Source: an uncultured bacterium (GTDB taxonomy: Bacteria; Chlamydiota; Chlamydiia; Chlamydiales; SM23-39). From it: a stretch of DNA of 32,533 bases. The position numbers and the translations under genes are program-made. Below the pieces are notes generated by a model. It saw only the letters and a list, made by a program, of their open reading frames with translations. It had not been told where the DNA came from and made no database searches. The stretch lies in contig CAYGHT010000003.1 in the NCBI GenBank assembly GCA_964349755.1, positions 1 through 32,533 of the forward strand. Reading direction: 5' to 3'. Positions 18,442 through 23,185 of the stretch are shown in pieces; within the stretch, counting starts at the first letter, position 1, and every line of letters starts with the position of its first letter.

Positions 18442-18972
18442 ATGAAGCGAGCGCTTTACTACTACGACGATGAGATGCTCCGCCGCCGAGCCCTTCCCGT
18501 CGATGTCATCACTCCAGAGATCGTGCAGCTAGCAGAAGACATGATTGAGACGATGATCGCCTCAAATGGTGTCGGGCTCGCTGCCCCACAAGTCGGCAAG
18601 CTCCTCCGTCTTTTCATCATTCGGAACGAAGTGGTCGGCCCCGACGGCAAGCCGATGCTGGGCCCTCCAGAGGTGATCATCAATCCAGTCTTGTCCAAGC
18701 CCTCAGAAGAAAAAATTCCGATGCAAGAGGGGTGCCTCTCGCTTCCCGGTCTGTACGTGGATGTAGTTCGGCCAAAAGCCATTCACGTGCGCTACCAGAA
18801 TTTAAAGGGCGAGTGGATCGAAGAATTATTAGACGACTTTAGAGCGCGCGTCACGATGCACGAAAACGATCACTTAAATGGCGTGCTCATCATCGATCGG
18901 ATCTCAAAAGACGAGCGAAAGAAAATCGAGCCGCACCTCAAGCAGATTAAGGTGAAGTACTCAACGGCTTAA
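18442..18972 (+). CDS. def: peptide deformylase
   Basis: All three deformylase motifs are present: GVGLAAPQVG, EGCLSLPG and HENDHLNG. Confidence 0.95.
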   Translation: MKRALYYYDDEMLRRRALPVDVITPEIVQLAEDMIETMIASNGVGLAAPQVGKLLRLFIIRNEVVGPDGKPMLGPPEVIINPVLSKPSEEKIPMQEGCLSLPGLYVDVVRPKAIHVRYQNLKGEWIEELLDDFRARVTMHENDHLNGVLIIDRISKDERKKIEPHLKQIKVKYSTA

Positions 18973-20084
18973 GAAACTGCTTCAAACGATGTGACTTCCT
19001 TAAGTTCAGAGCAACGAGGTTGCTCGCGAAGAATTCCAGAGACTCGAATGTAGCGGTTTTCTTTATGAGCATCGCATGCGATCGAGTAGAGCATGGGGTT
19101 CAAAGAAGCTCTGGCTTTGATCGATTCTTCGTCTACCAAAAGACTTAAATGTACGTCGCCTTCTACAGAACCTTCGTCATTTTCAGCGCCGGACAAAGAC
19201 AACACCTTGCCGATGAAGAGGCTTTGCGTGATTTCTGCAGGCGGCTTCAGTTGCTGGCCTATTTTGGTAATGGAAGGGAAGTGAGTGTCTCGAATGGCTA
19301 CTTCCCTGGGAATATTTCCGTTTAAGGGGACGGTTTGCGACCAATTCATCTCAAAATTGAAATGCATTGCCCCCACGCTAGACTTCATCTCTGCTAGCGC
19401 AAGGCAAAGGTTTGCACTGAAGGCCAGTGGTTCAAGCTCTGCGACGGGCAAATTAGTAGAGGGTCGATCCACGAAGCTGGCCAATTGATTGAGCGAGGTC
19501 ATGAGACACTCGCTGACTTTTCGAGAAAAAGGGTGTTTTGTGCTCTGTTCTGGAATGGATTGAGCCTCGTCCATGGGAAATTGGATTTTTACTACGTAAC
19601 TCCCGGTCTCTGGAGCTCCCGCTCGACAGCCGCGCATCCACTGCTCCGCCTGAGCGCGATGCAGCTTTTTGTAATAAGGTTTCGGATCGATTGCAAAGAG
19701 CGCAGAAGCGACGAGGACTTTGCGTAAACCTTCTTCGACGCTTCGCTTATCGAAGTAGGACATCCATCCATTGCCAATCTGATCACCTGTAATGCGCACG
19801 CGCAACACATCATGCTCAAGGTTCAGCAAGTCTTCGATAATTTCAGACGGCTCGCGATCCTCGTGGCGTGATAGAAATTGAATTGCGTCATAGATCCTCC
19901 GTTGGTAATCGCCAAAACTCCGGTCGATAGGCAACACAATTTCTTCCTCTTGATAGAGAAAGTTTTTGCGCAAAATAGCAATCTTGGGCAGGCCAGGCTC
20001 GATTCGGCTCCACCCGCGTTGCCTGAGATAATCAATCACTTGCTCTGAAAAGAGCCCCATTGTCTCGAGTTCAGCAAGCTGCAT
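18969..20084 (-). CDS. uncharacterised 371-aa protein, partner of the DUF4365-like gene
   Basis: It is a long ORF. I prefer the ATG at 20084, which is preceded by AGGAG at a 7-nt spacing. The track start at 20114 is a TTG. It overlaps the upstream gene by 14 nt. I see no P-loop, TM segment or recognisable catalytic motif. It is AT-richer than flanking housekeeping genes: a spot count of one 60-nt line gave ~48% GC, against ~60% in the NTT gene. Confidence 0.7.
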   Translation of the reverse strand: MQLAELETMGLFSEQVIDYLRQRGWSRIEPGLPKIAILRKNFLYQEEEIVLPIDRSFGDYQRRIYDAIQFLSRHEDREPSEIIEDLLNLEHDVLRVRITGDQIGNGWMSYFDKRSVEEGLRKVLVASALFAIDPKPYYKKLHRAQAEQWMRGCRAGAPETGSYVVKIQFPMDEAQSIPEQSTKHPFSRKVSECLMTSLNQLASFVDRPSTNLPVAELEPLAFSANLCLALAEMKSSVGAMHFNFEMNWSQTVPLNGNIPREVAIRDTHFPSITKIGQQLKPPAEITQSLFIGKVLSLSGAENDEGSVEGDVHLSLLVDEESIKARASLNPMLYSIACDAHKENRYIRVSGILREQPRCSELKEVTSFEAVS

Positions 20085-20646
20085 AGGCGATCTCCTCTTG
20101 ATTTGCGCCTGCAATCATCCACTCTCTGAATGACGAATCCGTCAATCGATTTTCGTGCGGGATATGGATCGTTACACTGGTTGAATTAGGCACAAAACTT
20201 TTTCCTCGTAAACTCATCCAATATGCTTTTCCCTTGAGAGCAAGCTCAGCTTCGCTCCACCTTATCCAGAGATTTTCGTCCATTGGCAACACAAGGATTA
20301 CTAACATTTTTGGCACCATCGTGACAACGCGTAAATCATCATAGTTCTTCATGGATAGCCGAAACGGCATGGGATCCTCATCAAACTCTGTGCTGGTTGC
20401 TTTGAGCTGCAAGTCAATTTTGGGAGAGTGGATGATGGCCTTTGATCCGAGAACGCGACCTTGCGCGCACACTGTCGCATCCACGCTATCCCGATCTATT
20501 TGAGTTCGCTCAAACGAGTATCCCAGCTTAGTCGCCAACGCATGCACATAGAGATAACTCAGTTCTTGTTTAATGTCGTTCGTTCTATGCAGCATGGGTC
20601 TTTCAATGTTTCTCAACAGAATACGCCACAAATTATTTTTTTGCAT
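20071..20646 (-). CDS. DUF4365-like protein (PD-(D/E)xK restriction-endonuclease fold)
   Basis: QELSYLYVHALATKLGYSFERTQIDRDSVDATV ... KIDLQLKATS matches my recollection of the DUF4365 pattern (E...A...G......D..G[IV]D, then Q[LV]KAT). It is followed by FRLSMKNYDDL...VPKMLVILVLP...W...LALKGKAYWMSL. This is a by-eye assignment only. Confidence 0.65.
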   Translation of the reverse strand: MQKNNLWRILLRNIERPMLHRTNDIKQELSYLYVHALATKLGYSFERTQIDRDSVDATVCAQGRVLGSKAIIHSPKIDLQLKATSTEFDEDPMPFRLSMKNYDDLRVVTMVPKMLVILVLPMDENLWIRWSEAELALKGKAYWMSLRGKSFVPNSTSVTIHIPHENRLTDSSFREWMIAGANQEEIAYAAC

Positions 20647-20662
20647 AGCTGCTGGCCAGCTA

Positions 20663-22720
20663 CTACTTTTTAACGAGCGAGATCCCTGCGGTCACACGGT
20701 CGTCTCGGTCTGTGTGGCTATAAGACAAGCGCAGCTTGATTGCGGAGCTGATCCAGGTGAATAAATCCACTTTCACTTCGTTGTAGGGCGTCTCGTTCAG
20801 TCGGTAGAATCCGTGGTGCGATTGCACTTGGCATTCCCAGAATGGATTGAAGCGCACAAATAGGTTAAGGAGCAGGGTGATTCTTCGGTCGGAGAGGGGA
20901 GACAAGAGGAGCTCGGATTCTTGGCGGGTGCAGTCGAGGATGAAGTTGTCGTGGTCGGCTTTTCGCCAATCGAAGCGGGAGCGGAAACGCCCTTCGACGG
21001 AAAAAGCTGCATTTTCATTGAGGGTCCATTGCACGCGTGCATTGGAGTAATCGAGCGTTTGGTGCCAAAAATTCCAGGCATTTCTCCAGGTCACATGCAG
21101 AGACGGCAATCGCCAGGCGAGATCTAGATAGAGTTTGGGGATGAGACGGGGGATTGTGGGATCGGCGGTGAATGCGTTGGCAAAGAGATCGGCGCTAAAA
21201 GAGGGGGCTTGCCCTGGCCGTTTTTGCGAAAAGAGCAGATTGCGGATGCCTGCTTGGAATTGATTGATCCGGTTCACGCCGTCTTGGATTGAGAAAATGT
21301 AGTGGGCATCTGGCGCTACGCTCGGCGCGCTCGCCCCCCTGTATTCGAAATACGGCTCTACGATGTGCTTGTAGCGCTCCCAAACGCGAATGGCTTTTGC
21401 CTGAACGCGAGCTCCATAGGATGCGATGCCAAGCCACTTTGCCTGTGAGGAGGGCGAGTTGGTGTAGGCGATCCCAAGGGCACCGATGAAGGGCGTTAAG
21501 GTCGCAGCGCCCAACCGAAATGTTCTGGAAAAACTTTGTCTCGCTTCGAAACGCCCCGATGCAAAGCTCTCCAAGTTCATGGCCAGCTGATCTGAGTACT
21601 TGAAATCGACATAGGAGGCTTTCAGCCAGCTAGACGACAAAATGCCAGAGCGTCCTAAGGTCATTGGTTTTGGAGCAAAGAAGAGGCTCGGCAAGTCTTG
21701 CTTGATCGACTCAAATCCGTTGACTCGAGGACGCGCTTCAGCCGCTCCGATGAAATTGGACGCTTGATGGCGCACAGCTGCGCGCGTGATTTTCGCTGGA
21801 TTGACCTCAAAATCGTCGCTCTTAAAATCGGACGGCATGCGCACATCGCTGTATTTATCCCACGTGACCGATCCCGTCGTCTGCTCGCTCTCGCTTGTCG
21901 AATGGAAGGCTCCTTGGAGCCGGTAGCGGCGCTGCTTATTGGTCGCTGTTTCCAATCGATCGGTGCCGAGGTAGCTTCGCGTGACAAAGGTCGTTTTATA
22001 TGCGGTGGGGAAGTATTCGGTTTCAAACGCGCCGCCCCAACCCGTCTTCCAGCGGTACTCAACTCTTCCGTACATGGCAAAATCTTGCCATGAATAAAGC
22101 TGATAGCGCGCCATGGCGCGAGGGCCCATGCCTTTATCCCAATCGATCGAATAGCGAAAAACGGGCTCTTTGAATTTCTTCAAGTTGAGCTTGAACGAGG
22201 GGAGCCAGAACGTCGGAATGTGAAAGAGGCGAAACCGAACATGTTTTGCCTCGAGCAAATCGTTGCTCAAAATGTCCACAGAGCTTGCGTGCAAATCCCA
22301 TGAACTATTGACATTTTCACACGTTGTGATTGAGGCGTCCTCGACTTTGTAGCTCCCGTCCGCATGGATCGTGATCTTACTCCCCCCGATGTACCACAGC
22401 GAGGAAAACGTCTTGCCGTCATACACAACGCCCCGCTTTGAATCGAAATCGTACTCCAGCTCGCTTCCCACATACGCTTTGCCTTTATACTGAACGAGGA
22501 TGTCGCCTTCCGCCTCAATCCGATGCACGCCGTCTTTGCGTATGTACTGAAGTGTGCGCGCTTGGATCCGAAGGTCTTGCCCCCGCACAACCCCGCCCTC
22601 CGTGGTGTAGAGAATCCCATTTTTGTAAGTGGGATTGCGCAAGTCTACGGAGAAGGGAATGGGCTGATCGTTTGTGGCAGCGAACAGCGCGAAGGGGAGA
22701 AGGCAGAGGCAGAAACGCAT
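20663..22720 (-). CDS. lptD: LPS-assembly outer membrane protein LptD/OstA family
   Basis: The likely start is the ATG at 22720 (MRFCLCLLPFALFAATN, a signal peptide). The track start is a TTG at 22759. The OstA-like N-domain reads GILYTTEGGVVRGQDLRIQARTLQY...EAEGDILVQYKGKAYVGSELEYDF. A large beta-barrel-like C-terminal region follows. Confidence 0.82.
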   Translation of the reverse strand: MRFCLCLLPFALFAATNDQPIPFSVDLRNPTYKNGILYTTEGGVVRGQDLRIQARTLQYIRKDGVHRIEAEGDILVQYKGKAYVGSELEYDFDSKRGVVYDGKTFSSLWYIGGSKITIHADGSYKVEDASITTCENVNSSWDLHASSVDILSNDLLEAKHVRFRLFHIPTFWLPSFKLNLKKFKEPVFRYSIDWDKGMGPRAMARYQLYSWQDFAMYGRVEYRWKTGWGGAFETEYFPTAYKTTFVTRSYLGTDRLETATNKQRRYRLQGAFHSTSESEQTTGSVTWDKYSDVRMPSDFKSDDFEVNPAKITRAAVRHQASNFIGAAEARPRVNGFESIKQDLPSLFFAPKPMTLGRSGILSSSWLKASYVDFKYSDQLAMNLESFASGRFEARQSFSRTFRLGAATLTPFIGALGIAYTNSPSSQAKWLGIASYGARVQAKAIRVWERYKHIVEPYFEYRGASAPSVAPDAHYIFSIQDGVNRINQFQAGIRNLLFSQKRPGQAPSFSADLFANAFTADPTIPRLIPKLYLDLAWRLPSLHVTWRNAWNFWHQTLDYSNARVQWTLNENAAFSVEGRFRSRFDWRKADHDNFILDCTRQESELLLSPLSDRRITLLLNLFVRFNPFWECQVQSHHGFYRLNETPYNEVKVDLFTWISSAIKLRLSYSHTDRDDRVTAGISLVKK

Positions 22721-22766
22721 GGGTCTATGAGCATAGTGCAGGGAGCGTTTGGCCTGCAACTGCTGG

Positions 22767-22805
22767 CTTATGTAACTGAAAAACGGAGTTTTTCGGTTAC
22801 ATAAG
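22767..22805. other. hairpin/inverted repeat spanning the hicB stop codon
   Basis: cttatgtaactg (22767-22778) pairs with cggttacataag (22794-22805), 11/12 complementary. The loop is aaaaacggagttttt. There is no clear downstream U-run, so terminator function is uncertain. Confidence 0.4.
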
Positions 22806-23091
22806 AATTTAGGCTCATGCCGATTGTTTTCGCTTGGAAAGCGAGTTTAGCATGTAATTCAGGCGAAATCCTGAGATTGAAAATGCCAGAAAATGTTTTT
22901 TCTGGTTTTTCGCCTCTTTTCTTACACCAAGCAAGATAATCATCGACCGAGTCTCTAAATGCTTCTTCGAGTTCCTCGACGCTCTTCCCTTGAAATGTGA
23001 TGATGTCGCTTAAAGCCAGGACCTCGCCATGAAAAATCTTCGCTTCATCATCGTATTCGACGTGTCCGATATATCCCTTGTATTTCATCAT
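22768..23091 (-). CDS. hicB: HicB-family antitoxin (N-terminal HicB fold plus C-terminal ribbon-helix-helix)
   Basis: MMKYKGYIGHVEYDDEAKIFHGEVLALSDIITFQGKSVEELEEAFRDSVDDYLAWCKKRGEKPEK is canonical HicB. The C-terminal FNLRISPELHAKLAFQAKTIGMSLNSYV is RHH-like. The 190-aa track ORF is an artefactual N-terminal extension into the neighbouring gene. Confidence 0.8.
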   Translation of the reverse strand: MMKYKGYIGHVEYDDEAKIFHGEVLALSDIITFQGKSVEELEEAFRDSVDDYLAWCKKRGEKPEKTFSGIFNLRISPELHAKLAFQAKTIGMSLNSYVTEKLRFSVT

Positions 23092-23185
23092 CGCAATGGA
23101 ATGGTACCATAGAGTGGTACGATTCATCAACCTGCGCCTTGGGTTCCAGCTATCGCATTCTCGGTTTGTAACTTCCGGCAAGAGC

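Follow-up and report, generated by a model that had tools for sequence, protein, structure and literature searches.

Two bodies of work bear most directly on the locus analysed here, a two-gene cassette in a 32,533-nucleotide stretch of DNA (hereafter the window) from an uncultured bacterium placed by GTDB in the Chlamydiales (SM23-39; assembly GCA_964349755.1, contig CAYGHT010000003.1, positions 1 to 32,533 of the forward strand). The first concerns nucleases of the Pfam family DUF4365. In TmuRE, the DUF4365 nuclease of a SPARDA-type short Argonaute system, Q62 and K64 have been proposed to lie in the active site, the mutant made to be inactive carries Q62A/K64A, and the activated TmuRE-Ago complex degrades DNA non-specifically; the domain has been likened to the classic PD-(D/E)XK restriction-endonuclease fold (PMC10810196). 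The second is a catalogue of phage defence candidates (PDCs), compiled by Payne, Hughes, Fineran & Jackson by 'guilt-by-embedding' from cassettes embedded in BREX, DISARM and type I restriction-modification (R-M) loci, followed by a RefSeq search. Its Table S8 lists CAS_00021 (FAM_01850>>FAM_00842) with a count of 894 RefSeq instances and the entry 'Assign as candidate PDC-M02', the second most abundant multi-gene candidate in the catalogue (bioRxiv 10.1101/2024.01.29.577857).

A preliminary description, made from the letters of the window alone, had presented the cassette as undescribed and as matching no named system. This part of it does not stand: judging from profile matches, the first gene (A) and the second gene (B) almost certainly form a member of the PADLOC family PDC-M02, published in 2024. 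Because a PADLOC look-up gives it, the cassette is no discovery in itself. It deserves attention for its family, which is big, and for protein B, which has no Pfam family and two-thirds of which have no structural analogue in the PDB.

Family membership and gene pairing

In a search of PADLOC-DB v2, A matches 25 PDC-M02A models and B matches 37 PDC-M02B models, each over its full length. The best model for A is PDLC04297 (E 2.5e-48; residues 22-184 on profile positions 3-163 of 165) and the best for B is PDLC04323 (E 3.4e-90; residues 14-370 on profile positions 16-372 of 374). The explanation of the whole that we favour, with modest confidence, is a mobile PDC-M02 pair composed of a nuclease effector and a nucleic-acid-sensing partner; that the pair has some role in conflict or defence is, taken by itself, fairly probable.

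The two genes travel together. Relatives of B were gathered by a word-indexed search (n=36) and by a scan of one genome per GTDB species (30 loci); the count of pairings also takes in plasmid, phage and IMG/VR loci, and A was sought with family hidden Markov models (HMMs). In 38 of the 40 other distinct loci A lies directly 5' of B on the same strand, overlapping or abutting it, which bears out the co-localisation in unrelated genomes, defence neighbourhoods included, that the preliminary description had proposed as a check. The overlap is 14 nt in homologues of the chlamydial clade (e.g. 7496-8014 / 8001-9080), as in the window, and 4 nt in more distant ones. Both exceptions are accounted for by an Archangium contig and a fragment. 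The former, from an Archangium sp. metagenome-assembled genome (MAG), carries a full-length B (local 7121-9406) with no A recognisable upstream by the family HMM at E<=0.01, and might be explained by decay, by a frameshift or by the use of another partner. Judging by gene layout, A and B are translationally coupled, and whether in different phyla, on plasmids or in temperate phages they are hardly ever found apart.

Some of these copies are on mobile elements. B is carried by 15 plasmid records. On Entomospira plasmid p28 the pair stands beside three DUF262 genes, HicA, an abortive-infection (Abi) gene and recombinases; in Paenibacillus the pair follows two integrases and phage-like genes. In the Leptospira temperate phage LE1 (BX571876 38735-40413; local 38735-40000) it corresponds to LE1-0038/0037, the B match having E 6e-9 by pairwise BLASTP, and in two M. 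abscessus prophages it forms genes 1-2 at the far left end (prophi102-2, local 398-2160; hhalign probability 99.6%). These phage copies surfaced via structure and via A; tblastn of B against the phage collection gave no match. Two further loci with the pair were found on IMG/VR viral contigs in a scan seeded with a narrower alignment, the broad 108-sequence alignment being too divergent to serve as seed. The genomic surroundings of the pair differ in every genome inspected.

At some loci these surroundings include defence genes. On a Binatia chromosome HsdS and HsdR flank the pair, which has DUF1828/DUF1829 genes beside it; two further Binatia loci have the pair directly after HsdS-HsdR, and on a fermentation-metagenome contig it abuts a DISARM-like trio of helicase, DUF1998 and phospholipase D (PLD) genes. 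A PADLOC scan of the neighbours of chlamydial copies detected AbiE, DpdF, PDC-S05 and mad2 genes at some loci. The embedding in R-M and DISARM-type loci is thus re-observed for the family, not for the window copy. In the first of these Binatia R-M loci the stretch between HsdS and the pair holds two DUF1828/DUF1829 proteins and a 134-aa open reading frame (ORF; local 6985-9218 for the set), a group that may itself be a further embedded candidate.

The same observations can be read as those of a toxin-antitoxin (TA) or addiction module, in which A would be a nuclease toxin and B its antitoxin, and the pair would be kept mainly because it stabilises plasmids, prophages and islands, without dedicated anti-phage sensing. 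The tight, translationally coupled two-gene layout, the carriage on plasmids and prophages, the TA modules (AbiE and HicAB) that are often neighbours and the many copies that stand alone among housekeeping genes would all suit such a module. However, B is a highly structured protein of 371 residues conserved over its full length, whereas typical antitoxins are small and labile, the presumed toxin gene comes first in the order, and the family is recurrently embedded in R-M/DISARM loci. We therefore regard an addiction module as unlikely, with the qualification that a TA function and defence by abortive infection can both hold.

The nuclease-like protein A and its partner B

The expectation that the 191-aa ORF encodes a DUF4365 protein was confirmed by a match to Pfam PF14280 of 62.1 bits, against a gathering cut-off of 24.3 (E 7.5e-17), in which A residues 28-177, numbered on that ORF, align with model positions 2-136 of 139; A, of the Mrr/DREN type of PD-(D/E)xK proteins, contains no further domain. 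The motifs E28, DRDSVDATV (51-59) and IDLQLKAT (77-84), pointed out in the same description, are present at those positions. D51, Q80 and K82 never vary among 21 aligned sequences (A and 20 homologues), and at least 90% of these have D56. The QxK motif corresponds to Q62/K64 of TmuRE, and because the D...QxK residues are kept, A looks like an active nuclease. Sequence searches of the PDB were uninformative: the A-family profile had no match at E<=1, and A, B and their family profiles gave nothing meaningful against PDB chains. PHROG places A in phrog_27905 and B in phrog_27927, with the function of both unassigned there.

B, by comparison with family databases, is as unrecognised as the preliminary description had found it: no Pfam or NCBIfam family was matched by the whole protein, by three segments of it or by consensus peptides. 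An impression that its first ~60 residues resemble HicA was dropped, as no match backed it. The family is nevertheless large, with at least 5,596 cluster representatives (50% identity) at E<=1e-3 and 1,966 at E<=1e-30 in an exhaustive HMMER search. Among the best 150 matches listed, lengths are ~360-445 aa, with a few shorter fragments and no fusions.

The AlphaFold2 model of B, built on 35 homologues, is confident, with a predicted local distance difference test score (pLDDT) of 88 and a predicted template modelling score (pTM) of 0.75, and divides the protein into two parts. Residues 1-282 form an alpha/beta module, which when modelled alone scores slightly higher (pLDDT 89, pTM 0.80). Foldseek found no credible analogue of it in the PDB (best E 0.28, prob 0.15), and the sole BFVD match is the homologue from Leptospira phage LE1 (Q6NE06; TMq 0.80, E 1.7e-14). 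Twelve residues of this module (Y19, W25, P52, D59, D92, G106, A128, P134, G161, S162, R188 and N225) are nearly invariant family-wide. Profile searches of B and the PDB structure search with residues 1-282 detected no helix-turn-helix (HTH), target recognition domain (TRD) or SRA domain.

The remaining ~90 residues are predicted to be an oligonucleotide/oligosaccharide-binding (OB) fold. They alone are matched (~85-100 columns of the 371-residue query) when the whole model is compared with the PDB, where the top ~50 matches are almost all OB domains of single-stranded DNA-binding proteins (SSBs), RPA and HIN-200 proteins of the p204/IFI16/AIM2 type, with prob ~1.0, E 4e-3 to 5e-2 and, for SSBs, a target-normalised TM of 0.5-0.6. 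The model shows a five-stranded barrel with a capping helix (strands 285-301, 307-317 and 320-328, helix 330-341, strands 345-353 and 359-370). In this part the barrel helix and the stretch that follows it carry the conserved residues Y333, A336, A339, H340 and G350.

Direct type IV-like restriction, as opposed to an abortive system, is a further reading: B would be the recognition subunit for modified, single-stranded or structured foreign DNA, and A would cut the invader only. The resemblance of DUF4365 to the PD-(D/E)XK restriction-endonuclease fold (PMC10810196), the frequent position of the pair in or beside type I R-M and DUF262/GmrSD-type genes, and an OB fold of the DNA-binding kind speak for it. 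Yet in the loci inspected the pair has no methyltransferase or modification gene as a regular companion, B shows none of the recognition domains looked for (HTH, TRD, SRA), and the one characterised DUF4365 nuclease is a non-specific collateral DNase (PMC10810196). Such restriction therefore seems improbable to us, and we retain the pair of nuclease effector and sensing partner as the favoured explanation.

The lptD-def gap and its chlamydial setting

The features of the locus are collected in Table 1. The anatomy given in the preliminary description can be read directly from the minus-strand letters: the stop codon of A (TGA 20073-20071) lies downstream of the ATG of B (20084-20082), so that the two genes overlap by 14 nt, and an AGGAG at 20096-20092, inside A, precedes the B ATG by 7 nt. 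In the six-frame ORF list the open frame of B extends back to a TTG at 20114 (ORF 18969..20114). NCBIfam matches likewise uphold the placement of the cassette between an lptD-like gene and a convergent def-secG-tpiA side. The product of the former matches NF052235 (CT351_fam) with E 2.6e-79, below the equivalog cut-off, and LptD more weakly (E 3.8e-9), and has 386 homologues at E<=1e-30. Beyond def the window contains secG, tpiA, xseA/xseB and a TLC ATP/ADP translocase gene. The chlamydial affiliation of the window is supported by this translocase, by the CT351-family protein and by nearest homologues from Chlamydiales-type MAGs.

Table 1 Features of the cassette and its surroundings (window positions; for the three relatives, local positions on their own contigs)
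Feature	Coordinates	Strand	Assignment
Gene A (PDC-M02A)	20071..20595	-	Stand-alone DUF4365 / PD-(D/E)xK-type nuclease family, probably 174 aa
Longest A ORF	20071..20646	-	191 aa from ATG 20646 (six-frame ORF list)
Gene B (PDC-M02B)	18969..20084	-	Partner protein, 371 aa from ATG 20084; family stand-alone, ~360-400 aa
B residues 1-282	19239..20084	-	Alpha/beta module (predicted)
B residues ~283-371	18972..19238	-	C-terminal OB fold (predicted)
A/B junction	20071..20096	-	Putative translational coupling
Spacer, lptD-like stop to probable A start	20596..20662	-	67 nt
CT351-family / LptD-like outer-membrane beta-barrel gene	20663..22759	-	Upstream boundary, 698 aa, housekeeping, outside the system
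def, peptide deformylase	18442..18972	+	Convergent downstream boundary; NCBIfam E 3.3e-45
Gap cargo, relative 1	6796-7311		Ubiquitin-domain gene
Gap cargo, relative 2	8189-9349		Leucine-rich repeat (LRR) gene
Gap cargo, relative 3	2231-6924		Five genes including alcohol dehydrogenase (ADH), GMC oxidoreductase and Fic

One oddity of the locus probably disappears with a revised start of A. The cassette had been said to begin 16 nt after the lptD stop without a Shine-Dalgarno sequence. In the alignment of A and its 20 homologues, however, those without an N-terminal extension start at the position of Met18 of the window protein (ML.xNDIK), and the few with longer N-termini carry extensions unlike that of the window; the Pfam and PADLOC matches on A begin at residues 20-28. 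ATG 20595 is therefore the most likely start, which places A 67 nt, and not 16 nt, after the lptD-like stop, and the earlier figure is probably an ORF-calling artefact of taking the longest ORF. The first ATG of that longest ORF is covered by a palindrome with a perfect stem, TAGCTGCTGGCCAGCTA, at 20646-20662, directly after the lptD-like stop. Since the T-run of this hairpin is on the plus strand only, it provides no obvious terminator for lptD.

The further remark that no obvious promoter precedes the cassette was upheld. On the minus strand, neither the gap between lptD and A nor its vicinity contains a recognisable sigma-70-like promoter; the sites returned by the promoter and terminator scan were no more numerous than in shuffled controls, and none of them accounts for expression of the cassette. 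Co-transcription of A with the upstream lptD-like gene is possible. At the other end the stops of def and B overlap by 4 nt within TTAA (18969-18972), which leaves no room between these genes for a terminator on either strand.

The cassette is also AT-richer than its neighbours, as had been noticed by eye: GC content and GC at third codon positions (GC3) are 0.453 and 0.495 for A and 0.490 and 0.518 for B, as against 0.52-0.58 and 0.60-0.73 for neighbouring genes. A search for flanking direct or inverted repeats returned short ones at chance level, with no integrase or tRNA-like boundary, and no Rfam family was found in the window.

The three nearest relatives, as judged by the lptD-like gene (75%, 69% and 68% identity), keep the synteny Maf-HEAT-...-lptD and def-secG-tpiA-xseA and lack the cassette at this site. 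Because they hold different cargo in the lptD-def gap (Table 1), the cassette is accessory. In relatives, def is followed by ~90-130 nt of space. From this comparison the gap (18973-20662 in the window) looks like a recurrent insertion hotspot that has received eukaryote-like effector genes among others, and horizontal acquisition into it appears to be the best explanation for the presence of the cassette in this environmental, chlamydia-like bacterium.

The nearest homologues of B, about 30 sequences at 43-54% identity, come almost only from MAGs of chlamydiae and the wider Planctomycetes-Verrucomicrobia-Chlamydiae (PVC) group, labelled Rhabdochlamydiaceae, Parachlamydiales, Waddliaceae, Chlamydiae and, in some cases, Verrucomicrobiae. 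No other B exceeds 54% identity to that of the window; the next group, from Myxococcota, is at 28-32%. A related PDC-M02 clade is present in about eleven chlamydial/PVC MAG species, and in each other chlamydial genome the pair occupies a different, non-syntenic site, a pattern that fits circulation of the clade within the phylum. Three MAGs of 2.0-2.3 Mb labelled 'uncultured Verrucomicrobiae' (OY970179.1, CAWIWQ010000001.1 and OY970364.1) carry the chlamydial-clade pair, and the label Verrucomicrobiota is also found on some homologues of the CT351-family gene; such labels may reflect loose assignment of chlamydia-like genomes within the PVC group.

This distribution also bears on the possibility, considered in the preliminary description for B, that the genes are conserved chlamydial housekeeping genes, for example for a nuclease and an SSB-like protein of DNA repair or recombination, co-transcribed with lptD. 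The near-restriction of the ~30 closest homologues to chlamydial/PVC MAGs and the position immediately 3' of an outer-membrane gene of essential type, where no promoter can be recognised, could be taken that way. But unrelated cargo replaces the pair at this site in the three nearest relatives, other chlamydial copies are non-syntenic, the composition is atypical for the window, and plasmids and phages from unrelated phyla carry the pair as well. We have rejected a housekeeping function as extremely improbable, the empty site in the nearest relatives being the comparison that largely refutes it.

Other accessory genes lie nearby. An AbiEi-like antitoxin gene (9892-10488) and an AbiEii nucleotidyltransferase toxin gene (9050-9895) form a minus-strand accessory pair with a GC content of 0.45-0.47, so that together with PDC-M02 at least two conflict-type cassettes are found within 11 kb of genome. 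A HicB-family antitoxin ORF (22768-23148, minus strand; Pfam E 5e-21) is directly upstream of the lptD-like gene; as no HicA-like ORF was seen nearby, this HicB could be an orphan, unless its partner is very small or degraded. Farther away, a 118-aa minus-strand ORF (6632-6988) has a Pfam match to FliO of flagellar and type III secretion system (T3SS) export (E 6.8e-9), near an Omp85/BamA-like gene (2393-4291).

The preliminary description had called defence systems rare in intracellular lineages. This agrees with the literature, where a 'quasi absence' of known anti-phage systems is reported for Chlamydiae (Tesson et al.), but needs tempering, because AbiEi/AbiEii is present in the same window and about eleven chlamydial/PVC MAG species carry the PDC-M02 clade. 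The phylum-restricted clade and the AbiE pair suggest that environmental chlamydiae do carry conflict systems.

Proposed mechanism and known systems

Beyond a role in conflict, the specific sensor-nuclease mechanism is tentative. As the effector, A would cut DNA in a complex with B, which would be the sensor or regulator. The OB fold of B would recognise a cue of invasion in nucleic acid, for instance single-stranded DNA (ssDNA) or replication intermediates, or B would gate A in some other way. Once licensed by B, A would degrade DNA, either that of the invader only or indiscriminately, which would amount to abortive infection; non-specific degradation is plausible. The parallel is SPARDA, in which an Argonaute partner unleashes the DUF4365 nuclease. 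Whether this would constitute a new immune mechanism, with an orphan-fold B that senses ssDNA or replicating invader DNA and activates a DREN-type A by assembly, is doubtful. If it did, a chlamydial clade would possess a working defence against ssDNA microviruses or conjugative elements, which would partly explain the 'quasi absence' of known anti-phage systems reported for the phylum.

Several observations weigh against the proposed pair of nuclease effector and sensing partner: (i) we found no experimental test of PDC-M02, a name that the full-text collection searched does not mention; (ii) two other PDCs tested in a native host gave no defence (PMC12409345), within a set whose results, when tested, have been mixed; (iii) many loci, those of the window and several other chlamydial genomes included, lie among housekeeping genes and not in defence islands; (iv) A is linked to the SPARDA nuclease by shared Pfam membership alone, as no PDB sequence was matched; (v) the OB-fold matches of B are individually weak, with E 4e-3 or worse; and (vi) the best-conserved residues of the OB fold are on the capping helix and not on the classic ssDNA-binding face, which hints at a protein-protein contact. 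A literature search of the same collection for a two-gene system of DUF4365 and OB-fold proteins under another name found no characterisation, and of the 21 papers in it that mention DUF4365 not one describes the pair.

Among described systems the catalogued PDC-M02 is the nearest, with full-length matches to both family HMMs and the same A>>B order, strand and adjacency. The architecture does not differ at all, although the window copy belongs to a divergent clade found in chlamydial/PVC MAGs only and stands among housekeeping genes, not within another defence system. PDC-M02 is a catalogue name only, and its role in phage defence is that of a candidate.

For the C-terminus of B, the nearest likeness is to SSB, RPA and the HIN-200 proteins AIM2, IFI16 and p204, with which its last ~90 residues share the same predicted barrel. 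HIN domains are innate-immune DNA sensors and offer a functional analogy for B. The likeness is at the level of the fold, at 12-23% identity and E>=4e-3, and B has a single OB fold in place of the tandem HIN pair.

Divona shares with the cassette a DUF4365 domain in an experimentally supported anti-phage context, but is a single integron-cassette protein in which DUF4365 is fused to crr6, whereas in PDC-M02 the nuclease is separate and paired with B (bioRxiv 10.1101/2024.07.02.601686).

SPARDA (e.g. TmuRE-Ago and NbaSPARDA) offers a further parallel, its effector belonging to the same Pfam family, DUF4365, with the same QxK residues, and both being two-gene operons with a non-catalytic partner that is thought to switch the nuclease on. 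The two differ in several respects: A (174-191 aa) is entirely DUF4365 and has no APAZ, B is no Argonaute (it has no Piwi/MID match and, for residues 1-282, no PDB analogue), the pair is flanked by def and the lptD-like gene with no short Argonaute gene adjacent, and nothing points to guide nucleic acids in PDC-M02. PDC-M02 offers a minimal, Argonaute-free setting in which to ask how the activity of a DUF4365/DREN nuclease is held back and released.

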